IMG/VR virus record: IMGVR_UViG_3300032335_000499
Length of the DNA stretch: 64,000 nt
Direction: 5' to 3' (one strand)
Source of the DNA: a virus
Lineage: Duplodnaviria > Heunggongvirae > Uroviricota > Caudoviricetes
The notes below the pieces were generated by a model. It was not told where the DNA came from, searched no databases, and saw only the letters and a program-made list of their open reading frames with translations. Each line of letters opens with the position of its first letter. The first letter of the stretch is position 1. The position numbers were made by a program, and so were the translations under genes. This document shows, piece by piece, positions 35,000-59,062 of this stretch.

Positions 35000-35007
35000 T
35001 CTAAATA
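35000..35007 (+). promoter_or_regulatory. late-promoter-like motif TCTAAATA heading the glycosylation island
   Basis: Intergenic TAAATA core upstream of an AGGAG RBS. Confidence 0.5.
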
Positions 35008-35020
35008 CTTCTAGGAGTAC

Positions 35021-35338
35021 ATGATGGATACTAAGACCTTAATTACCGAAGCAAAAGCTCGTTTTGCTCACAACTCAGCAAAAGATTATCTAAAAGAAAA
35101 GTACAACGCTAAACTGTTAGTAGCAGAGCAGGGCGGTCTATGGCGCGCTGATCAAGAAACTATTGCATTTTTAACAGTAATGCCGAACGGCGGGGACGAT
35201 AAACTTATTCTTATGGATACCTTTGATAACCCAGTGTTAGTAGACCGCAGTGAGCTATTAACTAAATTGAAAGATGTTTATAATAGTGTCATGGCGGAAT
35301 GGTACAATGAGTGGAAAGAGCTAGAAAGCAAAAGATGA
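35021..35338 (+). CDS. hypothetical protein
   Basis: AGGAG RBS; ATGA overlap with the next gene. Confidence 0.7.
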   Translation: MMDTKTLITEAKARFAHNSAKDYLKEKYNAKLLVAEQGGLWRADQETIAFLTVMPNGGDDKLILMDTFDNPVLVDRSELLTKLKDVYNSVMAEWYNEWKELESKR

Positions 35339-36147
35339 CCCGCGGTGTAATAATATTTGCCTTCAATAGTCACAAATATAACTATTATGAAATGGCTAAA
35401 CACGCAGCAAGTCGTGCTAAGCATTTCTTAAATCTACCAGTAACACTTGTGACAGATGAAGACTCCATGCCACCTGGAGAATATGAACACTGGGATAAAG
35501 TAGTAAAGATTAATCCAGACAAGAACAATGTGCGTGACTGGGGTCAATGGATTAATAAAGGCAGATATTTGGCTTATGATTTGAGTCCATATGATGAAAC
35601 TATTCTTATTGACGCTGACTATGTAATCAACTCAGACAAACTATTGAAGACATTTGACATTTACGATGACTTTTGTTGTCATGATAGTGTACGATTTTTT
35701 ATGCGTCAGGGTAATTTTCCCGAGCCACTCAGTCCTAATAGCTATGATGACATTCTGTGGGCAACAGTTATTACTTTTAAGAAAACTGAACGGGCAAAGC
35801 AAATCTTTGAATGTTTGGAAATGATACAGAAGAACTATGAACACTACGAACACATTCATGGGTTCTTGAATGCCGGATTTAGAAATGACTATGCATTGAC
35901 TCTTGCACTAAGAATTGTTAACGGTCATACTGATAACCCTAAAGATTTCATTCCGTGGAATCTAATGCATGTGGGAACAAATACTACAATTTATCCTAAC
36001 AACGAAGGTGAGTTCAATACTGAATACACAATCATGTTTGACAATTGGCAAAAACTCAAAATCAAAAAAGAGTATAATGTTATTAAAGACATGGACTTCC
36101 ATCTGATTAACAAGGATCTTTATGCAAGGATTATTGACAATGGATAA
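35335..36147 (+). CDS. GT-A fold glycosyltransferase-like protein (GT8-like)
   Basis: SPYDETILIDADY (DxD) and RND motifs. Start moved to ATG 35335, which overlaps the upstream TGA. Confidence 0.65.
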   Translation: MTRGVIIFAFNSHKYNYYEMAKHAASRAKHFLNLPVTLVTDEDSMPPGEYEHWDKVVKINPDKNNVRDWGQWINKGRYLAYDLSPYDETILIDADYVINSDKLLKTFDIYDDFCCHDSVRFFMRQGNFPEPLSPNSYDDILWATVITFKKTERAKQIFECLEMIQKNYEHYEHIHGFLNAGFRNDYALTLALRIVNGHTDNPKDFIPWNLMHVGTNTTIYPNNEGEFNTEYTIMFDNWQKLKIKKEYNVIKDMDFHLINKDLYARIIDNG

Positions 36148-36898
36148 GGGTTTTGTAATTATGGCGCAGGGTGATGACTATGTTACTTGTGCTAAAGCAT
36201 TAGAGCTTAGTATAAAGCGAACAATGCCAGATGCAAATGTAACTATCATTACTACTGAAATGCTTCCGCACGGGGATCAAGCTCCGGACCTCATTTGGAA
36301 ACTACAGAATGATTGGCAAGTATATGAAGCATCTCCGTATGAATATACTATCAAGCTTGAAGCAGATATGTATCTCCCTCAATCAATTGATTATTACTGG
36401 GATGTGTTGAAGGAACGGGACATAGTAGTGTCTACTAACATTCGTAACTTTAGGCAGGATATTAGTGATGTTCGTTATTATCGCAGATTTATTGATGACA
36501 ACAACCTCCCCGATACATATAACGCCATTACATATTTCAAAAAGAGCGAACTAGCTGAGAAGTTTTTCAATATTGTACGTGATGTATTTGAGAATTGGGA
36601 AGAGTATAAGCGTATCTTAAAGTGTAAAGTTGATGAACTTTGTACAACTGACTGGGCATATGCTATTGCTGCACATATATTAGGTGCCGAGAACACAACT
36701 ATGCCTCAATTTGATTCAATGACAATGGTTCATATGAAACAGTTTATCAATGGTTCTGCTACTGAAAACTGGACTGATTCGTTGATTCATGAACTGTTTC
36801 CCCATACTTTCCGTATCAATACTATCCCACAAGTGTATCCGGTACACTATCATATAAAGAATTTTGCTAACGTAATATTGGAGAAGTTCGGTGAGTGA
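36140..36898 (+). CDS. glycosyltransferase-like protein, paralog of the preceding gene
   Basis: ASPYEYTIKLEADM, YNAITYFKK and TDWAYAIA align with SPYDETILIDADY, WATVITFKK and NDYALTLA upstream; DxD reads EAD. Confidence 0.6.
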   Translation: MDKGFVIMAQGDDYVTCAKALELSIKRTMPDANVTIITTEMLPHGDQAPDLIWKLQNDWQVYEASPYEYTIKLEADMYLPQSIDYYWDVLKERDIVVSTNIRNFRQDISDVRYYRRFIDDNNLPDTYNAITYFKKSELAEKFFNIVRDVFENWEEYKRILKCKVDELCTTDWAYAIAAHILGAENTTMPQFDSMTMVHMKQFINGSATENWTDSLIHELFPHTFRINTIPQVYPVHYHIKNFANVILEKFGE

Positions 36899-37220
36899 TG
36901 AAGAAGAATATGTAATTGTTTGGGAAGCCCCAGAAATTGTTAAGCCGGAGTTTCGCCTTTACTATGATAAGCGTGGAAGCGTATTATTTTATACTTGTGA
37001 GAAGCCGGAAGGCGATTATATTGTAATTGATGCACTGACTTACGCAGAGTCTAGACCTGATATCAAGGTAGTAGACGGAAGAATTGTTAGAGGCGGTGCT
37101 AGTACACTAAGTTCTAGGCTACATAAAAGCACTGAAGGCACTCTATGCGAAGCTGAAGATGTTAGTATTATTACTGAAGCTAGTGGGCAATACTGGAAGT
37201 TGAAAACGGTCAGTTTATAA
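36891..37220 (+). CDS. hypothetical protein
   Basis: GTG start overlapping the upstream gene, GGAG upstream. Confidence 0.6.
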   Translation: MSDEEEYVIVWEAPEIVKPEFRLYYDKRGSVLFYTCEKPEGDYIVIDALTYAESRPDIKVVDGRIVRGGASTLSSRLHKSTEGTLCEAEDVSIITEASGQYWKLKTVSL

Positions 37221-37250
37221 TTTATAGGGGGTAGTTTCTCCCTATAAATA
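37220..37250 (+). promoter_or_regulatory. inverted repeat containing late promoter TATAAATA (37243-37250)
   Basis: ATTTATAGGG...CCCTATAAAT is a perfect 10-bp stem; exact T4 late consensus 5 nt before ATG 37256. Confidence 0.65.
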
Positions 37251-37255
37251 TATGC

Positions 37256-38200
37256 ATGGACGACATTATTGATATTGCAGACTTGGATTGTATCTATCTA
37301 AGCTACGACGAACCTCAAAAAGAGGAATTCTGGTTAAAGATTAAGAACATGGTTCCCTGGGCTGTCAGAGTAGACGGCGTTAAGGGAAGCGATGCTGCAC
37401 ACAAAGCAGCAGGAGAAGCATCTACTACAGAACGCTTCATTCTCATTGACGGCGACAACATGCCCGATGAGAACTTCTTTAATCTACAACTAGACTTTAC
37501 AGACAAAGACCCTAATTACAAATTAGCGCAGTATCGTTGGAAAGCAGTTAATGCTATCAACGGACTACGCTATGGCAACGGAGGAATGTCGTCCTGGACA
37601 AAAACCTACGTTGCCAACATGAAGACCCATGAGACAAGTACCGGAAGCGATGCTACTGCCGTTGATTTCTGCATGGATTCTTCCGATAATCTATACTGGG
37701 CAATGCACGACTGCTACTCTACAACGTATCCTAACTACACTCCCTTCCAGGCGTGGAGAGCAGGATTCCGTGAAGGTGTCAAGATGGTACTTGATCGGGG
37801 TGCAAAGCCCAGTATAGATGACTTTAAAGAACGGGTTGCTTCACGCAATCTAAACAATCTCACTATTTGGCACAACGTCGGCGCTGATGTAGAGAACGGT
37901 CATTGGGCTATATATGGTGCTAGACTTGGCACGTATATGACTATGCTTACTGATTGGAACTATACTGATGTCATGTGGTTTGACAACTTCCCTGTATTGT
38001 GGGAAGAGCATAAAAGCGGAGATCCATTAATGGGATCAGAGATGTTGGGAGATGAATTAGCAGCTAAACTAGGGTTGCCCATGTGTATTCTTAATCCTGA
38101 ACAGTCAAAGTTCTTTAAGCGTCACTATAACGCAGACAAACATAATCAAGGTCCATTAGTTAAAGAGATGGATGTTATTCGTAAGATTGAGGGCTGGTAA
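37256..38200 (+). CDS. GT-A-like glycosyltransferase
   Basis: IYLSYDEP, RVDGVKG..AAHKAA, FILIDGDN (DxD), AWRAGFREGVKM. Confidence 0.6.
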   Translation: MDDIIDIADLDCIYLSYDEPQKEEFWLKIKNMVPWAVRVDGVKGSDAAHKAAGEASTTERFILIDGDNMPDENFFNLQLDFTDKDPNYKLAQYRWKAVNAINGLRYGNGGMSSWTKTYVANMKTHETSTGSDATAVDFCMDSSDNLYWAMHDCYSTTYPNYTPFQAWRAGFREGVKMVLDRGAKPSIDDFKERVASRNLNNLTIWHNVGADVENGHWAIYGARLGTYMTMLTDWNYTDVMWFDNFPVLWEEHKSGDPLMGSEMLGDELAAKLGLPMCILNPEQSKFFKRHYNADKHNQGPLVKEMDVIRKIEGW

Positions 38201-39598
38201 TTGTCAGAATCAGAAACAGATAGAATTAAAAGAATCCGTGACTTCATTGACGTAAACGCTACGCCAACATTTTGTTTGGCTAAATGGCAGCATGTTACAA
38301 TGTATCTACAGACAGGTGAGACGCATAGTTGCTATCACCCAAAGCCTCACAAGATTCCTTTAGCCGAGTTAAAAGATAACCCAAGCGCATTGCATAATAC
38401 AATGCACAAGAAGCTTGAGCGTAAAGAAATGCTTGAGGGTAAGAAGCCCGAAGGTTGTCAGTACTGCTGGAACATTGAAGCAATGGGCCCTGATTACATC
38501 AGTGACAGACATATTCGCAACGCAAGTATTTTTACAAAGGAACGTTATGAACAAGCCGCAAAGGGACCCTGGGACCAAAACATCAACCCAGAGTATTTGG
38601 AAATTAATTTTGGTAACGAGTGTAATTTTAAATGCGGCTATTGCCATCCGAAATATAGTACAAAGTTCTACAAAGAAATAGAACAGTTTGGTCCCGTTGA
38701 AAATGTAAAGAACCATCGCTGCGATGTTGACTGGATGAAGTTATTTCAGCGTGAAGAAGAAAACCCTTACGTTGATGCATTCTGGGAGTGGTGGCCTGAG
38801 CTACGCAAGACACTAAACATCATGCGTGTTACTGGTGGCGAACCTACACTGCATAAGAGTACATGGCAACTGTTAGACAAAATTGATGAAGAGCCTATGC
38901 CTTGGCTTGAGCTTAACATCAACAGCAACCTAGGCACTAAGAATATTCTTATTGATCGCCTTGCGGTTAAGGTTAGAAAACTACAAGACGAGGGCAAGAT
39001 TAGAACATTCAAGCTGTTTACTTCAATGGATACATGGGGCGAACGGGCTGAGTATATCCGTTCGGGTCTTGAATTAGAGCTATGGGAAAAGAACTTCCAC
39101 ACTTACGTAAGTAAATCTAATAGCCCTATCACGTTTATGATTACGTTTAACATCTTCTCAGTAACCACGTTCAAGAGCTTGTTAGAAAAATTTCTAGAGT
39201 GGCGCAGACAATACGGCTGGGACGAAGAACGTAAGCAGCATATCATTCGTTTTGATACGCCATACTTACGTGACCCAATTCAGTATGATATGAATATTCT
39301 TCCTAAAGAAGAATTCATGCCCTATATGCATGATGCATTAAAGTTTATGGAAGACAATCTTGATGACACTCGTGCAGATGCCTTCAGCACAATTGAATAC
39401 GAAAAATTCAAGAGAGTTGTTGACTATATGGCAGAAACAGTGTATAGTGATGAAAAGCTAATTGAAGGTCGTAGAGACTTTTACAACTGGTTCAATGAAC
39501 TAGACGATAGACGAGAGACAGATATGTTATCTGTCTTTCCAGAAATGATGGATTTTTATAGGTTATGTCAAGAAGTGAATTTGGTTAATCCACTATGA
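38201..39598 (+). CDS. radical SAM protein with N-terminal twitch-like Cys domain
   Basis: CNFKCGYC, TGGEP; N-terminal FC...SC...CQYC; TTG start. Confidence 0.9.
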   Translation: MSESETDRIKRIRDFIDVNATPTFCLAKWQHVTMYLQTGETHSCYHPKPHKIPLAELKDNPSALHNTMHKKLERKEMLEGKKPEGCQYCWNIEAMGPDYISDRHIRNASIFTKERYEQAAKGPWDQNINPEYLEINFGNECNFKCGYCHPKYSTKFYKEIEQFGPVENVKNHRCDVDWMKLFQREEENPYVDAFWEWWPELRKTLNIMRVTGGEPTLHKSTWQLLDKIDEEPMPWLELNINSNLGTKNILIDRLAVKVRKLQDEGKIRTFKLFTSMDTWGERAEYIRSGLELELWEKNFHTYVSKSNSPITFMITFNIFSVTTFKSLLEKFLEWRRQYGWDEERKQHIIRFDTPYLRDPIQYDMNILPKEEFMPYMHDALKFMEDNLDDTRADAFSTIEYEKFKRVVDYMAETVYSDEKLIEGRRDFYNWFNELDDRRETDMLSVFPEMMDFYRLCQEVNLVNPL

Positions 39599-40782
39599 AT
39601 AAAGATTTCTTATTGAATGATAGTGAAACATTTTGCATGTTGCCATGGATTCATATGATGATGATTCCAAATGGTAACATGTATCCTTGTTGCGTGTCCC
39701 CAATTCAATTTGAAACAGATGATGTTAATAATTATGGTACTATTAACGATGATTTTGCTGTAACGATTAACAATGAAAAGTTTAAGCAACTTAGACTTAA
39801 TATGCTCAACGAGGTAAAAACACCTACTTGCGAATTATGTTATAGAAACCCAGCTGGATATACGTTACGCGGCGAAATGAACCGAACGTTTGAACATGTA
39901 TTTGATGAAACTGTTCCTTTAACTAAAGAAGACGGTAGCATTGATAACTTCAAAATGCGTTATGTAGATTTCAGATTTAGTAATGTATGTAATTTCAAAT
40001 GCAGAATGTGTGGACCTGCGTATAGTTCATCGTGGCCTGAACTGCACACAAGCGGAAAACCTAGATTAGTTAAACCCGCTGACGATGCAAAGGCGCTCGA
40101 AAAATTGTTAGAGCATATTGACTACATCGAAGATATCTATTTTGCAGGTGGTGAACCACTGATGATGGATGAGCATTACATTGTACTAGAAGAATTGATA
40201 CGTCGAGGAAAGACACATGTTAACTTGCGATATAGTACTAACGCAAGCAAACTAACGCATCGCGGCACCAACGTTATTGATATGTGGAAACAATTTGATT
40301 CAGTACGCATAGCAGCAAGTATAGATCACTACGGAGAACGTGCTGAATACATCAGAACCGGCACTGATTGGGGAACAGTAGAAACTAACTTAAAATTCAT
40401 TCAACAATTACCAAATATATATTTTAGTATTAACAACACCGTTACTGTATATAACTATCTTACCCTTAATAAGTTCTACGAGTATATGATTAATAAGGGA
40501 TTACTGAGTAAGGAAACAATTAACAATCATATTTCTCATCATCTATGCTATGGTCCCCCGCATACTACTCCAATGATATTGCCTAAACATCTTAAGGATA
40601 TTGGTACTATTGCTAATAGTAAGTTGCCAATAGACTTATCAGACCACATTAATATAGTAAACGCAGAAGATATTTGGGAAGCTAATAAAGAAAATTTTCA
40701 GCATACTACTAGGTTGATAGACAACGCACGAGGAGAAAGCTTCGTAAAGATATTCCCAGAATTAGCGGAGATGATGGAATGA
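39595..40782 (+). CDS. N-terminal-twitch radical SAM protein
   Basis: FCMLPW..PCC..CELC, CNFKCRMC, AGGEP, YSTN. Confidence 0.9.
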   Translation: MNKDFLLNDSETFCMLPWIHMMMIPNGNMYPCCVSPIQFETDDVNNYGTINDDFAVTINNEKFKQLRLNMLNEVKTPTCELCYRNPAGYTLRGEMNRTFEHVFDETVPLTKEDGSIDNFKMRYVDFRFSNVCNFKCRMCGPAYSSSWPELHTSGKPRLVKPADDAKALEKLLEHIDYIEDIYFAGGEPLMMDEHYIVLEELIRRGKTHVNLRYSTNASKLTHRGTNVIDMWKQFDSVRIAASIDHYGERAEYIRTGTDWGTVETNLKFIQQLPNIYFSINNTVTVYNYLTLNKFYEYMINKGLLSKETINNHISHHLCYGPPHTTPMILPKHLKDIGTIANSKLPIDLSDHINIVNAEDIWEANKENFQHTTRLIDNARGESFVKIFPELAEMME

Positions 40783-41975
40783 AAAATAACTTCTGTATTT
40801 TGCCTTGGATACATATGCATATCTGGCCTAATGGGTCAGTATATCCTTGCTGTATGAGCGATACCGATCAAGCATTGGGTAACATCAATGATATGCCTAT
40901 CGATGAGGTAATCAATAGCGAAGAATTCAAAACGCTACGCAAGCAGTTTATGAATGATGAGAAGCCGGACATGTGTACACGATGCTTTGAGCTTGAAGAC
41001 ACTGCTGACACATGGACGCTACGTAAGAGCAGCTTAGAGACATTCAAACACTACCTGCCATTAGCAGAAGATACACAAGAAGACGGGACCATTGACGATT
41101 TCAAAATGCGTTACATGGACATTCGTTTTAGCAATCTATGCAACATGAAGTGCAGAACTTGCGGACCTGAATTAAGCAGCAAGTGGTATGACGATCAGAT
41201 TAAGTTGTTCCCTGGCTATGAGCGTCCTAAGTTCATTGACGTAAACAGTGCTGATGACTTTATGGGCAAACTAAAGCTACATTTAGATACAGTAGAAGAA
41301 GTTTATTTTGCTGGCGGCGAAGTATTAATTACTCCCCAGCATTATGAAGTGTTAGACTATTGGCTTGAGCGCAATCGTGATGACGTAAGACTACGTTACA
41401 CAACGAACTTTAGTAACTTGCGCCACAAGAAACGTTCAATGCTTGAATACTGGAAACTATTTAAAGATGTAAGAGTAGCAGCAAGCCTAGATACATTCGG
41501 TGAACGTGCAGAATATAGTCGTTTTGGCACAAATTGGAACGAGATTGTTGCTAATAGAAAAGAAATGATTGAATCTTGTCCCAATACTTACTTTGAATTA
41601 ACTCCTACTATTAGTATCTTTAGCGTATATAATCTATTTGAGTTTCATAAGACATGGGTAGAAGAAGGCTTATTAGACATTAACCATATTCGCATTAATA
41701 TATTGACACACCCTAGATATTTCTCTATGACTATTCTTCCGAAAGAATTAAAGGATAAAATCGCAGGGATATATAAAGAGTATGTTAAATGGTTGCGAGA
41801 AAATAATGCCTGGCGACATATTATCAAGGACGTTGAAGGGATTGTCGAACACATGTATAGTGCTGACCATTCGAATTTGATTCCAGATTTTATCAAGCAT
41901 GTTGAAGCTATTGACAATGTTCGCAATGAGAAATTTACAGAGATTTACCCGGAGTATAAAGACTTATGGACCTAA
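40779..41975 (+). CDS. N-terminal-twitch radical SAM protein
   Basis: FCILPW..PCC..CTRC, CNMKCRTC, AGGE, YTTN. Confidence 0.9.
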   Translation: MKNNFCILPWIHMHIWPNGSVYPCCMSDTDQALGNINDMPIDEVINSEEFKTLRKQFMNDEKPDMCTRCFELEDTADTWTLRKSSLETFKHYLPLAEDTQEDGTIDDFKMRYMDIRFSNLCNMKCRTCGPELSSKWYDDQIKLFPGYERPKFIDVNSADDFMGKLKLHLDTVEEVYFAGGEVLITPQHYEVLDYWLERNRDDVRLRYTTNFSNLRHKKRSMLEYWKLFKDVRVAASLDTFGERAEYSRFGTNWNEIVANRKEMIESCPNTYFELTPTISIFSVYNLFEFHKTWVEEGLLDINHIRINILTHPRYFSMTILPKELKDKIAGIYKEYVKWLRENNAWRHIIKDVEGIVEHMYSADHSNLIPDFIKHVEAIDNVRNEKFTEIYPEYKDLWT

Positions 41976-43342
41976 CCCCAATCTCAGTTCCTGCTGAGCT
42001 TCCAAAGATTTCTAAAGTAGATTGGATGGCAAAGAACATGAACAAGTTCTGTGTCCTGCCCTGGATCAATCTACATACTGCACCTGACGGCAAAGTAAAA
42101 CTATGCTGTAGCATTCAGTACAGTAGCTTTGTTACTAACGCGGTCGATACTCCATTCAACTTTGGATATGATAGCATTGAAAGCATTTGGAACAGTGGCA
42201 ATATGCGCTACACTCGTGAAATGCATAGAGCTAACAAAGCGTTTTCGGCTTGTTACGAATGTTATAACGTAGAAAAGATTTCAGGCCATAGTCCTCGTAT
42301 GGGTCAGAATGAAGAATGGCTCAAGCGCAAAGAAAAGGATGAGTTCACTGCTGAGGTAGTAGATGATATTTCCCGTGAAGATGTTATCGATTTAGATAAT
42401 CTCCCCATCAGTCTTGAGCTACGATTAGGTAATCTGTGTAATCTACAGTGTATCACTTGCTATGGTTTAAGTAGCGCACCCATATATGATGAGAGGGCGA
42501 GACTATTAGAGCAGGGAGCAGTAGATGGTCCGGAGCATAAGTTCTTAAAGACAATGTGGAAGCACGAAAAGGATTTAGTCGATGCTACTGATGTAAAGAA
42601 TTGGTACGAGACTGACATGTTCTATGAGAACTTCCGTAAAGTTGCACCAAAGCTAAAGCGGCTTTATACTACTGGCGGAGAACCTACACTAATTAAAGCC
42701 AATTATAAGATGATGCAGATGTTATTGGATGCAGGCAATACTGACTGTGCTATTGAATTCACTAGCAACATGGTGGCTTGGAACTACGAATTCTACAGTA
42801 GACTAGAAAAGTTTAAGAACGTAGAAATTCAGATGAGTCTTGATGGAGCAGGCGATGTCGGTGCTTATGTTCGATATCCTAGTGATATGAATAGAGTCAA
42901 AGAGAATGTTATGAAGGCTGTGGAAATGGCTTCGTCTAGACCCAATTGGAAAATCAAGTGTTATACAGTGTTGCAAGCGTTGAATTATCGTCACATTGTG
43001 CCGGTTTGGGAAATGCTGAGAGAAGCAGCAGACACACATGCTAAGCACATTGATTGGTGGCCAATCACACTGTACTCTCCTCCCCAGCTTTCCTTAGCTG
43101 CAATTCCAATGGAAGCCAGACTATTATATCTTAAAGAGTTTAAGCTATTAGCAGCAGAATTTAATTCTACAGTAAGTTACTTTAGAATCAGTGAAAATAC
43201 TATGACACCTTGCATTGACTCTATTAAGAACCCAGAATATGATCCTGAGTTGCATGAAAATCTAATACGATACGTTAAGGTATTAGATAAGTCTAGAGAT
43301 ATCAGCGGGATAGAATTATTTAAAACGGAATTAGTAAAATGA
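41966..43342 (+). CDS. N-terminal-twitch radical SAM protein
   Basis: FCVLPW..LCC..CYEC, CNLQCITC, TGGEP, FTSN. Confidence 0.9.
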   Translation: MDLTPISVPAELPKISKVDWMAKNMNKFCVLPWINLHTAPDGKVKLCCSIQYSSFVTNAVDTPFNFGYDSIESIWNSGNMRYTREMHRANKAFSACYECYNVEKISGHSPRMGQNEEWLKRKEKDEFTAEVVDDISREDVIDLDNLPISLELRLGNLCNLQCITCYGLSSAPIYDERARLLEQGAVDGPEHKFLKTMWKHEKDLVDATDVKNWYETDMFYENFRKVAPKLKRLYTTGGEPTLIKANYKMMQMLLDAGNTDCAIEFTSNMVAWNYEFYSRLEKFKNVEIQMSLDGAGDVGAYVRYPSDMNRVKENVMKAVEMASSRPNWKIKCYTVLQALNYRHIVPVWEMLREAADTHAKHIDWWPITLYSPPQLSLAAIPMEARLLYLKEFKLLAAEFNSTVSYFRISENTMTPCIDSIKNPEYDPELHENLIRYVKVLDKSRDISGIELFKTELVK

Positions 43343-48620: not shown

Positions 48621-48628
48621 ATTAAATA
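48621..48628 (+). promoter_or_regulatory. late-promoter-like motif ATTAAATA, 5 nt before ATG
   Basis: TAAATA core in an intergenic gap; no Shine-Dalgarno before ATG 48634. Confidence 0.45.
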
Positions 48629-50938: not shown

Positions 50939-53022
50939 GCGAACTTAATATATACGCAAAGCCAGCAGAAACAAGACCAATGGAGCCGGATGCCGATACA
51001 AAGCATCTTGCAATGCTTCAGGCTATTGCACCTTATGTTAAAAACAAAGTACAGAAAGGTGTCACTGAAGTAGAGATTGTTCCCTCTACTACTAAAAATA
51101 CTAAGTTACTATTGTTATTGTTACCAGAATGGGCAACAATGTTTCCTCCCTTTAACATGGCAAGACTATCTGCCGTAGCAAAAGGCGCAGGCTATGAAAG
51201 TAAATGCATTGACTTAAACGTTAAAGCTTTCAATTATATGAAAGAAAATAAGAACTGCGGATTAGATTATAGTCCATGGGACGGTGCTCGTGAATGGAAA
51301 TGGACAGGTCACAACTATTACGAAGACTTGCACGAAAGACTAGAGCCTCTTTTCACTTCATACATTGAACAGATTGTAGAATATGCTCCGGACGTAATTG
51401 GCTTTACAACTTATTACTGTAACTATGAGCCTACTAGCTGGATGGCAGGTGAACTTAAGAAAGTATTACCTAACTCAGTATTTGTATTAGGCGGCAGTGA
51501 TGCTCACAAAGAACTAAGAGACATTAATCCAGCGTTTGACTATATTGTTCGAGGAGAAGGTGAAGGCATCATTCTTAACATTCTAGATAATGTAGAGAAG
51601 GGTATTCGATTTGATGAAATGCAAATTCTGCAACAGCCTGAGGGCGAAAGACTTAATTTAAGCGGCTTCCCAACTCCAGATTATTCACACTTTGACTTCA
51701 ATGACTATCAGATTCCGAACGGCGTCAACAGTGAACTTAGTCGCGGCTGCGTTGCTAAGTGTACGTTCTGTGAAGAAACACACTTTTGGAAGTATCGTCA
51801 ACGCCAAGCACTTGACATTCTAACTGAGTTACGCTATCTGTATTACGAGAAGGGTACTGATGTTGTATGGTTTATTGACAGTCTTGTTAATGGTAATCTC
51901 AGTGAGTTGATGGGCTTCTGTAAGGGAGTTATCGCCGCCGGCATGAAGATTCACTGGACAGGGTATTGTCGCTGTGATGGTCGTATGGACTTAGAGTATT
52001 ATCAAATGCTAGCCGATAGTGGTTGTGCAATGCTTAACTACGGTATTGAATCGGGTAGTCAAAAAGTGCTTGATGACATGGATAAGAAGGTTACTGTTGC
52101 TGAGATGGAACAGAACTTTAGAGATGGTGCAGCAACTGGAGTAGGAGCCTTCACTAACTGGATTGTTGGCTTCCCGACTGAACAATATCAAGACTTTGCT
52201 GACACATTAACATTCTTGTGGCGCAATAGAAACATGAACATTATTAATATTAGTCCGGGCTTCGGCTTCGGCCTAGGAATGAATACTGTTGCTGGGCAAA
52301 ACCCTGCACGATTTAACATATTAGATCACAAGTATCTAGATGGTGTCATCACTAAGGACTTTAGATTAAGTAAGTTCCATATTCTAAATCGTATGAAAAG
52401 TTTCTTTATATTCGTGCAGAATTTAATTACTGATAATCCGATTACTATTCCTCAGCGCCCTAACATTCCAATGTTTCACTATAAGTTACACTTATTAGAT
52501 CCTAGTATTCAAAAAGAAATTGAATATGAGCAGTTTGATTATGACATCATTAAGCCAAACATCAGCCCGTTTGCTGATAGTCTAGTAAATGAGATGTTTG
52601 TACTGTTCAGAATGATATGGCGTACTCGTGGCGGATTCCATATGACTGTTAAGTATGATGAAGAACTTGACATGATGGAGTTCGGCGGTCGTAACGCAGG
52701 ACCCTATTGGGCAACACATAAGTTTAATATTGACCATGATGGTAATTGGACATACGATGCTACGTTTAAGTTCGTACAGCCACCCGCTATTGTCGATCCA
52801 GGTGACCCCATGCTTCCTCGCAGTCCGTTCTTTGCTCAAGACTATTCGAGAGAGAAAGTAAACGCTGCTAAGAGAGCTAGAAAGTTAGCTAAGCCAGAAG
52901 AATGGGGAGACGAAGGTAGAGATCATGAACAGTTTATGGCACTGCTAGCAGAAGAAAGAGTATTAAACGAAACTGTTGACTTCACATTTGATTATGAGTG
53001 GTCCGGTTCAGGGAAGTGGTAA
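50935..53022 (+). CDS. B12-binding-domain radical SAM protein (class B methyltransferase-like)
   Basis: N-terminal cobalamin-binding-like domain (DVIGFT, VLGGS, DYIVRGEGE), SRGCVAKCTFC, GIESGSQKVL, IVGFPTE. Confidence 0.85.
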   Translation: MSELNIYAKPAETRPMEPDADTKHLAMLQAIAPYVKNKVQKGVTEVEIVPSTTKNTKLLLLLLPEWATMFPPFNMARLSAVAKGAGYESKCIDLNVKAFNYMKENKNCGLDYSPWDGAREWKWTGHNYYEDLHERLEPLFTSYIEQIVEYAPDVIGFTTYYCNYEPTSWMAGELKKVLPNSVFVLGGSDAHKELRDINPAFDYIVRGEGEGIILNILDNVEKGIRFDEMQILQQPEGERLNLSGFPTPDYSHFDFNDYQIPNGVNSELSRGCVAKCTFCEETHFWKYRQRQALDILTELRYLYYEKGTDVVWFIDSLVNGNLSELMGFCKGVIAAGMKIHWTGYCRCDGRMDLEYYQMLADSGCAMLNYGIESGSQKVLDDMDKKVTVAEMEQNFRDGAATGVGAFTNWIVGFPTEQYQDFADTLTFLWRNRNMNIINISPGFGFGLGMNTVAGQNPARFNILDHKYLDGVITKDFRLSKFHILNRMKSFFIFVQNLITDNPITIPQRPNIPMFHYKLHLLDPSIQKEIEYEQFDYDIIKPNISPFADSLVNEMFVLFRMIWRTRGGFHMTVKYDEELDMMEFGGRNAGPYWATHKFNIDHDGNWTYDATFKFVQPPAIVDPGDPMLPRSPFFAQDYSREKVNAAKRARKLAKPEEWGDEGRDHEQFMALLAEERVLNETVDFTFDYEWSGSGKW

Positions 53023-53115: not shown

Positions 53116-53220
53116 ATGTTTAAATTTGTTAAGAATCTATATAATAAAGTAAAGAGAGAAATTCAGTATCGTAAGCGTATCAAGGAACTACGCAAAAGAG
53201 ATCCGTTTATCTATAAGTGA
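53116..53220 (+). CDS. 34-aa basic peptide preceding the carbamoyltransferase (not in ORF track)
   Basis: MFKFVKNLYNKVKREIQYRKRIKELRKRDPFIYK*; purine-rich RBS; stop 1 nt before the next ATG. Confidence 0.7.
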   Translation: MFKFVKNLYNKVKREIQYRKRIKELRKRDPFIYK

Positions 53221-53221
53221 T

Positions 53222-54715
53222 ATGAACTACGTAGGAATCAGTTGCGGCTTTCATGACGCTGCTTTAAGTGTCATTAGTGATGGTGGCAATATACTTTTTG
53301 CTGGGCACAGTGAGCGTTACAGTATGAAGAAGCATGACAGTGAACTATGTTTGGGTATAGTGGATGACGCTAGAGATCATATCAATGATGACTTTGAGGT
53401 TCATTATTATGAGCGTCCATATGTCAAGGCTGTTAGACAGTTCTTCGCAGGACAAGAGCTTGGTCCGTTCAATGTCAATAAGATTATCGGCAATCAGAAC
53501 CTACGTATGTTAGAGAGTATGAAGAATATTCGGCAGGGTAAAGTAAAGACTCATAATCACCACTTGTGTCACGTAGCAGCAGGATTCCAAACGAGTCCAT
53601 ATGAGGATGCCACAGTAGTTGTTATTGATGCTATCGGTGAGTTAGATACAATTAGTATATGGGATGCAAAATATGATAAAACGGGTAAGGCAACGTATAA
53701 GAAGATTTGGGGACGTAAGTATCCTGACTCGATTGGTCTTTTTTATTCTGCGATGACAGCAAGGGTAGGTCTGCGCCCACTAGATGAAGAATATATTCTA
53801 ATGGGTATGGCTGCATACGGTGAACCTCTATACAATGCAGATATGAAAAAATTGTTTAGTAACTTTGGCAGTATTGTGTTAAAGGATAACTTACATATCG
53901 GGGTTGACGCAGATTTTCTCAGAGAAGCAGATAAAATGGACATTGCAGCATCCGCGCAAGCTGTGGTTGAACAGTTAATTGAAACTGTAATCAAAAAGGC
54001 TAAGAAGTTAGGCAAGAGCGACAATCTCGTATATGGGGGCGGCGTCGCCCTCAACTGTCTTGCTAACAGATTGATTGGTAAGTACTATGAGAACATTTGG
54101 ATCATGCCTAATCCAGGTGATGCGGGCAATAGCTTAGGCGCAGCAGCGTTAGGCTATGGTAAGAAGGTCAACTGGACTGATGCATTTTTGGGCTATGATA
54201 TCAAGGGCAAGTATCCGGTTGACAACATACTAAAAGAGTTGTATACTAATAAGATGGTAGGTGTCGCTAGTGGCAAGGCAGAGTTTGGCCCTCGTGCATT
54301 AGGTAACCGAAGCCTACTAGCAGACCCTCGAGGGCCTGAGATTAAGGATATAGTAAATGACATTAAACGAAGACAGCAATTCAGACCATTTGCGCCTGTT
54401 ATTTTGGAGGAGCTGGTTACTGATTATTTTGACATGCCTAGCGGCTGGAGTGACAGTAGGTATATGCAAGTCATCGCTACTTGTAGGCATCCTGACTTAT
54501 TTCCTGCTATCGTTCACGCTGACGGGACTTCTCGTGTACAAACTGTGCCGAATGATGGATCAGGAATCAGAAAGCTCTTAGAAGCTTGGTATAAAGAAAC
54601 AGGCTGTCCAATGCTACTGAATACATCGTTAAATATTCGTGGTGAACCAATGGTTAATAGTCGCAGTGATGCCGACAGATTTGAAAAACTCTACGGAGTA
54701 AAAGTCTGCTCATAA
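53222..54715 (+). CDS. O-carbamoyltransferase (CmcH/NodU/TobZ family)
   Basis: FHDAA, HHLCH, DAIGE, GGVALNC, GDAG, EFGPRALGNRS, FRPFAP, HADGTSRVQTV, LLNTSLN. Confidence 0.92.
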   Translation: MNYVGISCGFHDAALSVISDGGNILFAGHSERYSMKKHDSELCLGIVDDARDHINDDFEVHYYERPYVKAVRQFFAGQELGPFNVNKIIGNQNLRMLESMKNIRQGKVKTHNHHLCHVAAGFQTSPYEDATVVVIDAIGELDTISIWDAKYDKTGKATYKKIWGRKYPDSIGLFYSAMTARVGLRPLDEEYILMGMAAYGEPLYNADMKKLFSNFGSIVLKDNLHIGVDADFLREADKMDIAASAQAVVEQLIETVIKKAKKLGKSDNLVYGGGVALNCLANRLIGKYYENIWIMPNPGDAGNSLGAAALGYGKKVNWTDAFLGYDIKGKYPVDNILKELYTNKMVGVASGKAEFGPRALGNRSLLADPRGPEIKDIVNDIKRRQQFRPFAPVILEELVTDYFDMPSGWSDSRYMQVIATCRHPDLFPAIVHADGTSRVQTVPNDGSGIRKLLEAWYKETGCPMLLNTSLNIRGEPMVNSRSDADRFEKLYGVKVCS

Positions 54716-54718: not shown

Positions 54719-54724
54719 GATAGT

Positions 54725-57700
54725 ATGTTGAGAGACGTTTTTTATTACGGCGATAAGCCTAATGTTCACCCTAGAGAACAGTTCGCAGAGAATCTAGCTG
54801 ATGCTAGATTCAAATCCACTACGCATGACTTTTGGATTATCAATGAGTTCTGTGATTACCAAAACTTTGATTGGGACTTTGACTTTGAGTTACTGCCCGA
54901 CGAAGATGTTTGGGCAGAAGATCACAACAACGTGTGGCCTAGCCAACATCAGAAAGACTCTGGTACATGGTTGTGTCCAAAAGAATATAGTGACATTATT
55001 ATCTATCGCGGAGACGTAGATCCTGTCAAGAGAAAGAACGAACGAACATCAAATTGGATTCTGCTAGATAATATAGATGATTCTAAGTTTGACTTTAGTT
55101 GGCATCCCGATCCCACTGCGCCTGCTTACATATACAAGTGGGGATGCAAGTTCTTTCCCGCAGAGTTAAAGCACGTACTAGAATATCACGTAGAAGGTGC
55201 TACAACCGAAAAGTATATGAATGTCATTGCAGAATTGCTACCTAATAGTGACTGCTGGACCGAACATGACTTGATTAACAAAACAAAGTTCGATATGTCA
55301 TGGCGTCCAAACCCAATGGATCCTCCCTTCATCTATGTTTGGGGTAACAAATGGGTAGACGGAAAACTAAAACCTACTCTAACGTATCATGCTCCGAATG
55401 CAGTAGACACAAAGTACATGCCGGAACATGTTCCTGTTCTTCCTGAATGGGACAAGTGGGTAGAAATACAAGCAGTAGACAAAAATAAGTTTGATTTCAC
55501 TTGGCGCCCTGACCCAAGAGAACCTTCATACATTTACACCTGGGGTAATAAGCACATTGCAGCACAAGATCGCCCAACCCTAGAATATCACTGCGATGAT
55601 GCAACTGATAGAAAGTATATGGATGAACAAGTTCCCGTTCTCCCTGAATGGGACCGCTGGAAGATAGTGCAAAAGATAGACATGAATAGCGTTGATTTCA
55701 CTTGGCGCCCTGATCCTAAAGAACCTCCTTTCACTTACGTATTCGGTAATGAGTTATACGATGCTGTAAAGATGCCTACAATTATCTACAACATGCCCGA
55801 CGGTCCGGAAGTAAAGTATATGGGCAATCTTAAAGCTAAGTTAGCTCCCAACGTTGAAAAGTTCCGAGTGCTGATTCCGATTGACAATGACAGCTTTGAT
55901 TTTGCATGGCTTCCAGATCCAGACGAACCTCCTTACATTTATACATGGGGAAATCAGTGGAATAGTGCTGAGATAGAACCCACTGTTGAATTTCATGTGG
56001 AAGGCGCTACGCAACGCAAGTTTATGGATGCTAGAGCAACAGTGCTTCCTGACATGAGCCGCTGGTTAGAGATTCAAGAAGTAGATAAGAGTAAGTTTGA
56101 TTTCAGTTGGAGACCTGATCCCACTTCGCCTCCTTACATTTATACATGGGGTAACAAATGGATTGATGCAGAATTGCGCCCCACGCTTGAGTATCATTGC
56201 GAAGGTGCAGTTGAACCTAAGTACATGAGTAATGATGTTCCTGTGACGCCGGAGTCAGATAGATGGAAAATCTTACAAAAGATTTTACCTGACAGCTTTG
56301 ACTTCACCTGGCGTCCTGACCCAAGAGAGCCACCTTATACCTATGTGTTCGGTAATGAATTGTATGATGCAATCAAGATGCCGACTATCATGTATAATAT
56401 GCCCGACGGTCCGGAAACAAAATACGTACATGATATCACTGCAAAATTAGCAGGGAATAGAAGTCTATACGAGCATTTAGAAGACGCTGAGTTAGAAGAT
56501 TATTCTTGGGTTCCGGATCCAGATAGCCCGCCCTACATATATGCATGGGGAAATCAGTGGAATAAGCCAGAAGATAAGATATCTATTCAAATCTCCGTGC
56601 CAGGTGCTACTGAATACAAATACATGGAACAACGAGCAATCCGTAAACCTAATAGAACTAATTGGGAAATACCGGATAGCCTATCTGCATTTGACTTTAG
56701 TTGGGAACCTAACCCAAATGATCCTCCCTATATCTATGAATTTGCGACAGTATGGAATAATAGAGGCGGCCCTCGCTACGTAGTACCTGGCGCTACTGAA
56801 TACAAGTATGTCGAAGATATCAAAGCTGTTTTAAAACCTGATAGAACTAACTGGGAAATTCAAGAAGGCGTCGATACCTCCGGCTTCGATTTCTCGTGGG
56901 TCCCACATCCGGACGCACCTGCATACGTCTATCAGTTTGGTACTAAAACTGACAACGACGATGGTCCTAGATACGTTACTCCAAACAATAGCGGCGAAGT
57001 TGTGTATTTGGAAAGAATAGAGTCAACTGTCATCGTAGTTGGTCAGTACCCTATCGAAACTACACTAGATGATCTAGTAGCACAACATCCTAATGAAATC
57101 TTTTGGGCTACGAGAAAGAACATTGACTACTCTAGCTTTGATTTTGACTGGCGACCAGGCATAGTTGAAGTAGCATGGGAACTAGATTATGTTCATGTAT
57201 TCGGTTCACCTGATTCAGAGCTAACACAAACATATTTTATCAGTGCCAAACACTATGCAGAAGGTAATACTAGTCTTAAGTTCGTAGAAGAATTGAAGCT
57301 AGATGAAAGTACTCTTTCTAAAATCTTTGCTAAACCCGACATGTTCTTTGTAGATAGAAGTAATCCAGAATCAGCAGCAAGATTTGAAGCACTAAGGGCA
57401 AAATTTGGCACGAGAATTCAAAAGACTCGCTATCTCAACTCATGGGTAGATACTATTAGTCGTTGTAATAATCGTGCAACTACTGAATTGCTTTGGGTGT
57501 TCAACAGTGAGCTAGACTATACCGACTTCAACTTTGATTATTATCCTAACCCTTGGCAGATGAAGATGGTGCATGTATTCGGAACTCAGTGGTCACATTG
57601 GGGTACTACATTTATGGTCAATCGTGAGACCTTTAAAGAAGATACAAAATATATCAAGGTCATCGAACACCTATCAAATCTTAACTTTGTGAAGAATATT

Positions 57701-59062
57701 AAAGCTAACGCAACTCAGTGTATTCATGATATTATAGTTATTGACCATGGCAATACAGAATTACCATCCGTGCTAAAAACTGTTAATAGCAAAGCATGTG
57801 GAAGAAACGTAACAACTATCTCATATAACACCAGTTACTTTGGTACTCTCAAAGAAATCTTAAAGAGGCAACAAGAGAAGAAAGAACATTATATTTGGAT
57901 TTGCTCTAGTGTTTGTGACTATAGCGACTTTGATTTCTCGTATATATGTGACCCATACGCTAAGGACCAGCTGCATGTCTTCCCCAGCGGTATACAGAAG
58001 TTTGGAGATACATTCTTTGTTGATGTTAATTTGGCACGTGAGTTAATTGATGAAATGGAAAAACTAGAAGACTTCCGTAAAGTTAACTTTAACCCCACTA
58101 TTAAAGCAAAGAGACTTCCAGAACCGGTAATAGTAACAACTGCTGATACACACGTTGCATCAATTAAAAATGTCACAGGGTTCCCGTACGCCACTATAAT
58201 CACCGAGGATAATGTAGACATTGAGGATACAGTTATTGAACCGATGAATTTATGGTTTCCAGAGTCAAAGAACATATTGATTACTAGCACCGGCGGAACT
58301 AGAATTGTTGTTCCGATAGAAGCTAAAGATTATGTTACGAGTGAACTGTACGAATACCCATATATCAAGCGTATGCCTAAGCTAGTGAAATCAAATCCGC
58401 TAGACATTGTATTCTTGAGCAACGGGGAAACCGGAGCAGAAGAAAACTATGAACATCTATTGAAAGTTACTGCAAACTTATCCAATAGGGTAGTGAGAGT
58501 AGACGGAGTAAATGGTAGAGTAGCAGCGTATCATGCAGCAGCAGAAGCAAGCAACACGCCATGGTTCTTTACTGTCTTTGCGAAACTAGAAGTCAGTCCT
58601 AAGTTTGATTGGAATTGGCAACCGGACAGAATGCAGATACCTAAGCATTATATCTTTCACGCAAAGAATCCTGTTAATGGTTTAATCTATGGGCACCAAG
58701 CTATGATTGCTTATAATAAGAAGTTGACATTAGGTAACGAGGGTAAGGGACTAGACTTTACGTTAGACAATCATCACGAAGTAGTGCCATTGATCTCCGG
58801 CACGGCACGTTATAACACTGATAGTTTCTCAGCATGGCGTACTGCTTTCAGAGAAGCAATTAAGTTAAAGATGGGTAACGATGATGATTCCCGTGAACGC
58901 CTTGAAGCATGGCTTACCAAAGGCGAGGGTGAGTTCGCAGAATATAGTATCAAGGGCGCTCAAGACGCTATGACCTATTATGATGAGGTCAACGGGGATT
59001 TTGACAAACTAAAACTAAGCTATGAGTGGATTTGGCTCAAAGAAAAATTTGATCAAATTTAA
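54725..59062 (+). CDS. 1445-aa Trp/Pro-rich repeat protein with degenerate GT-A domains
   Basis: Ten ~60-68-aa repeats, then degenerate GT-like modules and a C-terminal domain paralogous to 37256..38200. Confidence 0.75.
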   Translation: MLRDVFYYGDKPNVHPREQFAENLADARFKSTTHDFWIINEFCDYQNFDWDFDFELLPDEDVWAEDHNNVWPSQHQKDSGTWLCPKEYSDIIIYRGDVDPVKRKNERTSNWILLDNIDDSKFDFSWHPDPTAPAYIYKWGCKFFPAELKHVLEYHVEGATTEKYMNVIAELLPNSDCWTEHDLINKTKFDMSWRPNPMDPPFIYVWGNKWVDGKLKPTLTYHAPNAVDTKYMPEHVPVLPEWDKWVEIQAVDKNKFDFTWRPDPREPSYIYTWGNKHIAAQDRPTLEYHCDDATDRKYMDEQVPVLPEWDRWKIVQKIDMNSVDFTWRPDPKEPPFTYVFGNELYDAVKMPTIIYNMPDGPEVKYMGNLKAKLAPNVEKFRVLIPIDNDSFDFAWLPDPDEPPYIYTWGNQWNSAEIEPTVEFHVEGATQRKFMDARATVLPDMSRWLEIQEVDKSKFDFSWRPDPTSPPYIYTWGNKWIDAELRPTLEYHCEGAVEPKYMSNDVPVTPESDRWKILQKILPDSFDFTWRPDPREPPYTYVFGNELYDAIKMPTIMYNMPDGPETKYVHDITAKLAGNRSLYEHLEDAELEDYSWVPDPDSPPYIYAWGNQWNKPEDKISIQISVPGATEYKYMEQRAIRKPNRTNWEIPDSLSAFDFSWEPNPNDPPYIYEFATVWNNRGGPRYVVPGATEYKYVEDIKAVLKPDRTNWEIQEGVDTSGFDFSWVPHPDAPAYVYQFGTKTDNDDGPRYVTPNNSGEVVYLERIESTVIVVGQYPIETTLDDLVAQHPNEIFWATRKNIDYSSFDFDWRPGIVEVAWELDYVHVFGSPDSELTQTYFISAKHYAEGNTSLKFVEELKLDESTLSKIFAKPDMFFVDRSNPESAARFEALRAKFGTRIQKTRYLNSWVDTISRCNNRATTELLWVFNSELDYTDFNFDYYPNPWQMKMVHVFGTQWSHWGTTFMVNRETFKEDTKYIKVIEHLSNLNFVKNIKANATQCIHDIIVIDHGNTELPSVLKTVNSKACGRNVTTISYNTSYFGTLKEILKRQQEKKEHYIWICSSVCDYSDFDFSYICDPYAKDQLHVFPSGIQKFGDTFFVDVNLARELIDEMEKLEDFRKVNFNPTIKAKRLPEPVIVTTADTHVASIKNVTGFPYATIITEDNVDIEDTVIEPMNLWFPESKNILITSTGGTRIVVPIEAKDYVTSELYEYPYIKRMPKLVKSNPLDIVFLSNGETGAEENYEHLLKVTANLSNRVVRVDGVNGRVAAYHAAAEASNTPWFFTVFAKLEVSPKFDWNWQPDRMQIPKHYIFHAKNPVNGLIYGHQAMIAYNKKLTLGNEGKGLDFTLDNHHEVVPLISGTARYNTDSFSAWRTAFREAIKLKMGNDDDSRERLEAWLTKGEGEFAEYSIKGAQDAMTYYDEVNGDFDKLKLSYEWIWLKEKFDQI
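55050..57015 (+). repeat. ten tandem ~200-nt coding repeats (FDFxWxPDPxxPPYIYxWGN...KYM)
   Basis: Visible in the translation; DNA identity between units, e.g. atgcccgacggtccggaa near 55793 and 56399. Confidence 0.85.

Follow-up and report, generated by a model that had tools for sequence, protein, structure and literature searches.

We analysed a 64,000-nt stretch of DNA from a tailed virus (Caudoviricetes; IMG/VR record IMGVR_UViG_3300032335_000499), called the window throughout, in which an island of glycosyltransferase (GT)-like and radical S-adenosylmethionine (SAM) genes lies directly behind the fibre genes. Our preferred reading, to which we assign a probability of roughly 45%, is that the island encodes a late, cytoplasmic pathway that would assemble a sugar chain, edit it and place it on the virion, most likely on the fibres. 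The parts of this reading differ in strength. A sugar-based product is probable, and a late, cytoplasmic pathway for the assembly and tailoring of a uronic acid-containing glycan is well supported. The virion, and the fibres in particular, are the best-supported target because the cassette is linked to fibre genes, shares a late motif with them, encodes soluble enzymes and, in the relatives searched, comes without DNA-modification partners. Genes are named below by their first nucleotide; coordinates are collected in the table.

The island (35021-59062, + strand) comprises 20 open reading frames (ORFs) of 105-1445 amino acids (aa) and one 34-codon ORF, all co-oriented, and 13 of its gene junctions overlap by 4-28 nt. 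The original prediction, made from the DNA before any database search, had described 21 co-oriented, often overlapping genes directly behind the fibres, and this layout was confirmed. Its view of the enzymes as cytoplasmic also held: all island products were soluble by a hydropathy scan, and no membrane segment was found in any island protein (no 19-residue window above 1.40, Kyte-Doolittle). Ten ORFs received no Pfam (E up to 10), PHROG or NCBIfam assignment, except for one PHROG without an assigned function (36122; phrog_1903, E 2e-9). An all-against-all comparison of the unassigned ORFs revealed three paralogue pairs: 35311 and 36122 (weak), 37256 and the C-terminus of 54725, and 46580 and 49802.

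Three of the five GT-like genes that had been predicted were placed by fold: 37256 (GT-A), 46580 (GT-B) and, as a full-length paralogue of the latter, 49802. For 35311 there is an Atlas lead, a protein-language-model lead to GT8/Nucleotid_trans (nearest named clusters PF03407/PF01501, score 0.96), and 36122 is its weak paralogue. The AlphaFold2 (AF2) model of 37256 (pLDDT 79) had the PBCV-1 capsid glycosyltransferase A64R as its best Foldseek match. In VIA, its GT-A domain (residues 4-161) matched B4GALNT1, chondroitin synthase, SpsA, STIV A197, mimivirus R699 and PBCV-1 A64R with Z scores of 8-9.3, the top value of 9.3 covering residues 4-159; mimivirus R655 was also listed. The protein matched no Pfam GT family, and its own family has an invariant D65-x-D67-N68 and a YGNGG motif. 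The AlphaFold model of 46580, built with 30 homologues, reached a pLDDT of 92, and its Foldseek and VIA matches were all GT-B enzymes: a chlorovirus NY2A glycosyltransferase came first (Z 10.3), with the T4 beta-glucosyltransferase and alpha-1,3-fucosyltransferases within one Z unit. PDB sequence and profile searches returned no relatives for the GT-B, GT-A, 35311, 47800-family or 45903 proteins, and the GT-B protein had no match among 50,697 phage records.

Gene fusions in relatives connect these folds to sugar transfer. A GT-A of the 37256 type is fused to a GT2 on a 3-Mb Bdellovibrionales contig and to a GT1-type domain in another relative. There are also many double GT-A proteins of marine origin, termed E-E', each with two DxD motifs, E' being our name for a short GT-A subfamily. 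Together with a dehydrogenase-GT-B fusion, these arrangements argue for a role of 37256 in glycoconjugate synthesis. The Pfam names of partner domains in long E-family proteins (DUF4197, BBS2_CtH) were uninformative and were dropped.

The dehydrogenase-GT-B fusion occurs in a close relative of the source phage, L004 (IMGVR_UViG_3300036944_000101; its radical SAM 40779 is 92% identical), where a single 776-aa ORF (14693-17023) joins the dehydrogenase to a GT-B domain 44% identical to 49802. In the window, 48634 and 49802 overlap by 20 nt in different frames. The fusion suggests the product of the dehydrogenase as a substrate of 49802. The dehydrogenase itself has the GxGxxG (IGVGKLG) and catalytic Cys (GGACHPRD) motifs. 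The claim that the island makes a uronic acid-containing, tailored glycan is thus supported by folds and by gene fusions in relatives.

The sugar dehydrogenase, the O-carbamoyltransferase and SufT had each been named from the sequence, and each stood: the first through its Pfam domains and catalytic Cys, the second through Carbam_trans_N and Carbam_trans_C, both above the Pfam gathering scores, and the third through TIGR02945. The carbamoyltransferase is not NodU itself, because it scores 126 bits on the NodU equivalog against a cut-off of 1000. Two proteins, 45903 and 47800, had been called SGNH-like. Both carry the motifs (GDS or GCS...DxH), and neither gave a firm match in Pfam; PDB searches and hhalign returned nothing for an SGNH homology. 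One of 17 members of the 47800 family matched Lipase_GDSL_2 weakly (E 0.01), and the Atlas yielded only DUF6071, on 13% of members. The description of 54725 as a pseudo-GT repeat protein was fair: at least eight repeats fit the FDFxWxPD core, more degenerate copies follow at the same ~67-aa spacing, and the C-terminal GT-A-like domain belongs to the E' subfamily, with the DxD and YGNGG motifs lost here and kept in E' copies elsewhere.

All seven predicted radical SAM enzymes were real by their intact CxxxCxxC motif (38201, 39595, 40779, 41966, 43339, 44653 and 50935). Five of them (38201, 39595, 40779, 41966 and 44653) are members of NF033640, the NCBIfam family N_Twi_rSAM (twitch domain-containing radical SAM protein; cut-off 170 bits), with scores of 254-394 bits, while 43339, at 37.6 bits, is not. 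In these N-twitch proteins a SPASM-type Pfam domain precedes the radical SAM core, and the family invariantly keeps C6, C25, C66, C69, C121, C125 and C128. The family profile matched the C-terminal twitch domain of BtrN, an enzyme with an aminocyclitol substrate, in the PDB (E 2.7e-6); its core matched viperin, SkfB, MoaA and 8vpo, an uncharacterised radical SAM protein, and had a weak match in the sugar decarboxylase BlsE. A single N-twitch protein searched against the PDB found nothing; only the family profile matched. For the B12 enzyme 50935, the best named NCBIfam models scored far under their cut-offs. Oxidation, epimerisation and methylation, which the original prediction named for enzymes of these kinds, are hypothetical as activities of the individual island genes. 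None of 14 model genomes had an NF033640 member above the cut-off, and literature searches found no paper on the N-terminal twitch architecture and nothing that treats jumbo phages, radical SAM enzymes and glycosyltransferases together. We considered a recent tandem duplication as the origin of the array and rejected it: the paralogues are only 20-39% identical to each other, and distant contigs hold a separate orthologue for each of them.

Among characterised SPASM/twitch enzymes, most have peptide substrates. The radical SAM enzymes of the island could also act on protein, cross-linking or epimerising the Trp/Pro-rich repeat protein 54725 or the fibres in the manner of maturases of ribosomally synthesised and post-translationally modified peptides (RiPPs), with the transferase folds holding the substrate. 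Weak NCBIfam matches to SkfB, PapB, HxsB and YhhB point the same way, as do the run of near-identical aromatic motifs in 54725, which ends in a catalytically dead GT-A, and the large bacterial radical SAM islands that have no GT2. However, every RiPP-family match lies far under its cut-off and the auxiliary domain best matches BtrN. Protein modification would also leave the dehydrogenase, the carbamoyltransferase, the short-chain (SDR) enzymes of relatives and the DxD transferases without a role, and the minimal cores of Ralstonia phage RsoM2USA and Bdellovibrionia do without the repeat protein. We regard a protein substrate as distinctly unlikely.

We wondered how far the cassette extends beyond the source phage. 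The GT-B family, which has at least 727 metagenomic relatives, none of them with a Pfam domain, was used to retrieve 79 viral loci, against which the island proteins were scored. Among loci with a GT-B (n=81), the N-twitch radical SAMs were found in 65-72, the dehydrogenase in 61, the GT-A in 59, the repeat protein in 56, 47800 in 55, the B12 enzyme in 31 and SufT in none; SufT was likewise absent from all 84 related loci examined. Gene order is preserved in contigs of 98-360 kb. The 37256 family saturated an 8000-candidate search; clustered at 50% identity, its members in public metagenomes fall into 1,514 groups. Median identity across loci was 60% for 38201 (maximum 94%), 57% for the dehydrogenase, 42% for the GT-A, 32-34% for the GT-Bs and 29% for 35311 and 36122. 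Even close relatives, L003/L004 (86-92% identical), lack 39595 and SufT, have an SDR sugar epimerase/dehydratase in addition and carry the dehydrogenase fused to a 49802-type GT-B; the accessory genes seen in relatives include SDR sugar epimerase/dehydratases as well as additional radical SAM enzymes of the B12 type. This uneven conservation, with gene content differing even among close relatives, indicates a cassette with a constant core, 35021-39598 together with the dehydrogenase module, and swappable tailoring genes. The island had been put forward as a candidate new system; as something unique this was not borne out, as the cassette is widespread and has been mentioned before (PMC7029224).

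Among cultured phages, only Ralstonia phage RsoM2USA has a version of the cassette (ORF353 and ORF352, GT8-like; ORF350, GT-A; ORF349, radical SAM; ORF348, E'), located downstream of its baseplate, giant-protein and sheath genes. A minimal core of GT-A, E' and one N-twitch radical SAM is found in this phage and in Bdellovibrionia. In Bdellovibrionales the GT-A family is chromosomal (contigs of 0.4-3 Mb), either next to three GT2 genes, close to dnaB and ftsK, or in a triad of GT-A, E' and N-twitch radical SAM, and genomes of 3-4.5 Mb hold 11-20 N_Twi_rSAM genes. Some of these genes lie in ~30-kb islands with up to 14 N-twitch genes, interleaved with soluble proteins of ~250-470 aa outside known families. 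We looked for a phage-fibre-like acceptor beside the Bdellovibrionales copies and dropped the idea: the large neighbour at one locus is a methionine synthase, and housekeeping genes account for the other annotated ones. At another locus a 1131-aa neighbour had no Pfam match.

Two side observations concern the distribution. A 303-kb phage contig contains 12 N_Twi_rSAM members above the cut-off: besides the fibre-linked cassette at ~175-181 kb, a second cluster at ~284-298 kb holds at least seven. Synteny of fibre genes and cassette also occurs in many contigs assigned to bacterial and archaeal metagenome-assembled genomes (MAGs) of unrelated phyla, seven loci among others, one of them in a Haliscomenobacter MAG; these are probably phage contigs binned into MAGs.

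The link to the fibres bears on the virion as target. The original prediction had proposed both the virion as target and a synteny survey as a check. Run on the related loci, the survey found a homologue of 32782, of 34025 or of both no more than 2.5 kb upstream of the cassette head, on the same strand, in 23 of 23 loci, RsoM2USA included; these are all the loci whose sequence reaches 1.5 kb or more upstream of the head, and their GT-A identity goes down to 38%. The virion target was strengthened by this, with the acceptor itself a candidate. In the window, 29963 and 32782 match fibre or virion PHROGs, and 32782 ends in an intramolecular-chaperone domain (Pfam). The two fibre genes (29963-32407 and 32782-34011, + strand) share 45% identity over their N-terminal ~230 aa and differ in their distal parts, so they look like alternative fibres on one anchor. 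The proteins of the fibre region contain 24-29% Ser+Thr; at the upper end is 34025 (29%), which is fibre-like and had no match among the 50,697 phage records.

Cassette and fibre genes also share a promoter-like motif. TAAATA occurs 22 times on the + strand of the window, and 9 of these sites have a start codon no more than 45 nt downstream, versus ~0.5 expected; the nine precede the wedge gene, the fibre genes, 35021, 37256 and 48634. Across relatives the motif precedes the cassette head in 26 of 40 loci, the dehydrogenase in 48 of 65 and the fibre gene in 14 of 26, against a background of 1.8%, and it stands upstream of internal cassette genes in 3-11%. Four late motifs had been predicted at the heads of sub-modules: those at 35002, 37245 and 48623 are TAAATA sites, and the one at 54711 is no such motif. 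The accompanying claim that no clear sigma-70 promoter appears until 59071 proved correct, with the only perfect (12/12) consensus match there and promoter-like sites within the island at chance level. The motif resembles the T4 late promoter, from which we infer that the island is expressed late.

The same genes could instead serve to remodel a host surface polysaccharide (O-antigen or capsule): unusual nucleotide sugars would be added to lipid-linked intermediates and exported by the host's flippase and ligase, changing a receptor and blocking superinfection or re-adsorption. Uronic acids and O-carbamoyl or O-acyl groups are indeed typical of surface polysaccharides. However, the island encodes no initiating transferase, flippase, polymerase, ligase or membrane protein; the late-like motif that it has in common with structural genes would be late for exclusion; fibre genes invariably accompany the cassette; and the Bdellovibrionales copies sit beside dnaB, ftsK or metH, not in visible polysaccharide export loci. 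We hold a host-surface target to be unlikely, although it is the published reading of the cassettes of GT8, UDP-glucose dehydrogenase and radical SAM genes in pelagimyophages (PMC7029224).

A third possible target is phage DNA, which the enzymes would glycosylate and further modify, evading restriction. Radical SAM and carbamoyl steps occur in known thymidine and cytidine hypermodification pathways, and the 46580 model aligns with the T4 beta- and alpha-glucosyltransferases (Z 9.8 and 9.1). This likeness is generic to GT-B enzymes, however, and late timing and fibre linkage fit DNA modification poorly. We searched for the partners that it would need in four large relatives rather than in the source phage; one of the four, with 360,683 bp and terminal repeats, is a complete genome. 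Each of the four has a single gene of the thymidylate synthase family (~354 bits), with the PFNIAS and PCH motifs of true ThyA, and no second such gene that might be a hydroxymethylase. None has a TGT/DpdA, in a search whose positive control worked, and none has a Tet/JBP match, in a search made without a positive control. With a canonical ThyA only, no TGT/DpdA and no Tet/JBP match, the relatives offer no attachment chemistry for DNA glycosylation. DNA hypermodification had been disfavoured from the outset; after these searches, above all those in the complete 360-kb relative, it is extremely improbable.

Finally, the product might be a free small molecule, a pseudo-oligosaccharide or an aminoglycoside-like or nucleoside-like compound, directed against competitors or used in host manipulation. 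The mix of a BtrN-like twitch, a TobZ-family carbamoyltransferase, a B12-radical SAM enzyme and a GT-B is reminiscent of an aminoglycoside cluster, and a cyanophage set of radical SAM, aminotransferase and amidinotransferase genes has been read as antibiotic genes (PMC12801897). Pfam and NCBIfam scans of the island found no cyclitol synthase, aminotransferase, exporter or self-resistance gene, however; such a molecule would be released only at lysis, and the tight fibre linkage would go unexplained. We judge it very unlikely.

Taken together, these results suggest a sequence of steps for the pathway that we favour, a glycan placed on the virion. The dehydrogenase would turn an NDP-hexose into an NDP-uronic acid, which a GT-B of the type fused to the dehydrogenase in L004 would transfer. 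The conserved GT-A and its GT8-like neighbours would begin or lengthen the chain; the acceptor would be soluble, with the Ser/Thr-rich fibres encoded just upstream as the likeliest candidates. Radical SAM 38201 would act on the sugar, or on its nucleotide-activated form, in a fixed radical step, and the variable radical SAMs, the B12 enzyme, the SGNH-like proteins and the carbamoyltransferase would add lineage-specific edits. The outcome would be a phage-specific glycan on the particle.

Several points weigh against this scheme. The fibre synteny may be gene order inherited within one deep phage lineage, Ser/Thr richness is typical of fibre proteins whether glycosylated or not, and the acceptor is a candidate only. 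The late motif is a consensus match, known from sequence. The solubility of the enzymes is also compatible with host-surface remodelling, as most O-antigen transferases are soluble or peripheral. On the enzymatic side, we know of no reaction for any NF033640 member, the family being only catalogued. The big Bdellovibrionales N-twitch islands contain no Pfam GT2 gene and, across the three examined, one E' domain; the N-twitch family is therefore not tied to glycosyltransferases everywhere. The dehydrogenase scores 154.2 bits on TIGR03026, under the cut-off of 189.8, and Pfam did not detect its C-terminal UDP-binding domain PF03720, for which reasons we file it as a divergent member of the UDPG_MGDP_dh family. 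The evidence for the 35311, 36122 and SGNH-like assignments is weak.

Table. Features of the island and its surroundings in the window
Feature	Coordinates	Strand	Evidence and occurrence
Candidate-acceptor region: fibres 29963 and 32782, a 105-aa ORF and fibre-like 34025	29963..34975	+	PHROG/Pfam, Ser+Thr content, synteny
TAAATA late-promoter-like motif, 19 nt before cassette-head gene	35002..35007	+	Window scan; conserved in relatives
Cassette-head protein, 105 aa	35021..35338	+	No Pfam, PHROG or NCBIfam match; homologues at the cassette head in 33-40 loci
GT-A-like protein, GT8/nucleotide-diphospho-sugar transferase lead, DxD-like IDADY	35311..36147	+	Atlas; motif by eye; 42-51 loci and RsoM2USA ORF353
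Presumed second GT-A-like protein	36122..36898	+	22% identity to 35311, E 4e-5; homologue RsoM2USA ORF352
109-aa protein, nearer relatives only	36891..37220	+	No family match; 12 loci
Core glycosyltransferase: N-terminal GT-A fold, invariant DxD (LIDGDN), helical C-terminal domain without known match	37256..38200	+	AF2 model, Foldseek, VIA
Core N-terminal-twitch radical SAM, most conserved cassette gene	38201..39598	+	NF033640 318 bits; CxxxCxxC at residue 141
Three N-terminal-twitch radical SAM genes (39595, 40779, 41966)	39595..43342	+	NF033640 342, 394 and 254 bits
Short radical SAM, 329 aa, C-terminal Cys cluster, without N-terminal twitch	43339..44328	+	Pfam Radical_SAM 39.9 bits; orthologues in 24-30 loci
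SufT/DUF59 Fe-S assembly protein, accessory	44321..44656	+	TIGR02945 148.2 bits (cut-off 143.4)
Fifth N-terminal-twitch radical SAM	44653..45906	+	NF033640 277 bits
226-aa protein, possibly SGNH hydrolase/acyltransferase, N-terminal GFGDSF	45903..46583	+	Motif by eye; no Pfam/PDB match; 5 close loci only
GT-B-fold glycosyltransferase-like protein	46580..47797	+	AF2 model, Foldseek, VIA
265-aa protein, SGNH-like by motif only	47800..48597	+	Invariant GCS...G..N...DxH
TAAATA late-promoter-like motif, 11 nt before dehydrogenase	48623..48628	+	Window scan; conserved in relatives
NDP-sugar 6-dehydrogenase (predicted product NDP-uronic acid)	48634..49821	+	PF03721 57 bits, PF00984 65 bits
Second GT-B-like protein, paralogue of 46580	49802..50938	+	28.6% identity full-length, E 7e-40
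B12-binding (class B) radical SAM	50935..53022	+	PF02310 33 bits, PF04055 53 bits
34-codon candidate ORF abutting carbamoyltransferase, ending RDPFIYK	53116..53220	+	Sequence; no Pfam match
NodU/CmcH/TobZ-type carbamoyltransferase	53222..54715	+	Carbam_trans_N 115.9 bits, Carbam_trans_C 162.4 bits; few related loci
1445-aa repeat protein: ~67-aa FDFxWxPDP..PPYIY repeats, degenerate modules, C-terminal GT-A	54725..59062	+	Repeat scan, alignment; homologues in 56 loci
Perfect sigma-70 consensus promoter, island end	59071..59099	+	TTGACA-17-TATAAT, 12/12

The left half of the window encodes a myovirus baseplate, with a hub protein (phrog_13211) and a gp25-like wedge. The 1123-aa wedge protein scores 866 bits on phrog_10646 and is 31-34% identical to the wedges of Sinorhizobium phage Phosso, Agrobacterium phage Atu_ph07, Serratia phage BF and Escherichia phage 121Q. 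A nucleotide search of the 50,697 phage records found no DNA-level relative of the window. By its baseplate wedge relatives and this lack of a DNA-level match, the source phage is an uncultured jumbo phage of the Rak2/121Q/Atu_ph07 type. One unbroken ORF of 6618 aa, rich in Thr, Val, Gly, Ser and Asn, separates the baseplate wedge gene from the fibre genes (9296-29152, + strand); RsoM2USA has a 2541-aa structural protein in this position. Beyond the island, ARAGORN called a permuted tmRNA at 59892-60273 (+) with the tag ANDNNAYEGLALAA, and a 975-aa ORF follows at 60253-63180 (+), preceded by TATAAATA at 60241. A 98%-identical relative continues past the right end of the window and carries a canonical thymidylate synthase ~25 kb downstream of the GT-B gene; a nucleotide-metabolism region therefore probably follows there.

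Phages devote 20-30 kb and up to a dozen costly Fe-S enzymes to this cassette, and the source phage supplies an Fe-S assembly factor as well. The core transferase family has ~1,500 clusters, and no reaction is known for members of either the radical SAM or the transferase family. If the virion glycan exists, it would be the first radical SAM-tailored glycan in any virus and an added chemical layer in phage host recognition. A broader version of the idea, which we find doubtful, is that the fibres of a large, abundant, uncultured phage group carry radical SAM-edited glycans serving host recognition or defence evasion, that swappable N-twitch cassettes diversify them and that NF033640 is a new carbohydrate-editing class shared with predatory Bdellovibrionales. 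Should the product be something else, the cassette would still be a large uncharted pathway common to abundant aquatic phages and predatory bacteria. RsoM2USA, culturable and with a minimal version of one radical SAM, makes the question experimentally tractable.

Among the closest known counterparts is the 'host recognition cluster' of pelagimyophages, in which tail-fibre genes stand with GT8, UDP-glucose 6-dehydrogenase and radical SAM cassettes and which its authors read as modifying the host O-chain (Zaragoza-Solas et al. 2020; PMC7029224). Both combine fibre genes with transferases of the GT8 type, a sugar dehydrogenase and radical SAM cassettes that can be swapped, and overlap between that group and the marine loci of our set is probable. 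The paper contains no analysis of the radical SAM family, the conserved GT-A or the promoters, and pelagimyophages are T4-like whereas the present phage is Rak2/Atu_ph07-like. BtrN, the butirosin 2-deoxy-scyllo-inosamine dehydrogenase and archetypal twitch radical SAM, has a homologous auxiliary-cluster domain, and a carbohydrate-like substrate is plausible for both; its twitch, however, is C-terminal and that of the island enzymes N-terminal, their core resembles viperin, SkfB or MoaA at least as closely as it does BtrN, and no aminoglycoside pathway genes lie beside them. The cyanophage trio of radical SAM, aminotransferase and amidinotransferase, interpreted as antibiotic genes, comes from a 2025 paper (PMC12801897).

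Phage DNA hypermodification systems bring a hydroxymethylase, Tet/JBP or DpdA/TGT, none of which was found in the tested relatives, and O-antigen or lipopolysaccharide conversion cassettes (Gtr-type, Wzy/Oac-type) bring a membrane flippase, transferase or acetylase, of which the island has none. The two-domain GT-A polymerases that use UDP-glucuronic acid (K4CP, PmHS2, chondroitin synthases) are among the structural matches, and the E-E' double GT-As with the conserved sugar 6-dehydrogenase of relatives recall them, as well as the chlorovirus pair of hyaluronan synthase and UDP-glucose dehydrogenase; there is no sequence-level relationship, however, the second GT-A domain in the window is inactivated, and a polymer here is hypothetical. 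Virion glycosylation systems, such as PBCV-1 A64R with its partners and the mimivirus fibril clusters, likewise encode soluble viral GT-A and GT-B enzymes with structural genes. These systems, and mycobacteriophage capsid and tail-tube glycosylation as far as it is cited in PMC12801897 (Freeman et al. 2023), come without the radical SAM arrays, B12-radical SAM and carbamoyltransferase of the island, which is known here from its genes alone. The island is thus a variant within virus-encoded glycosylation, and one that the source phage shares with others.

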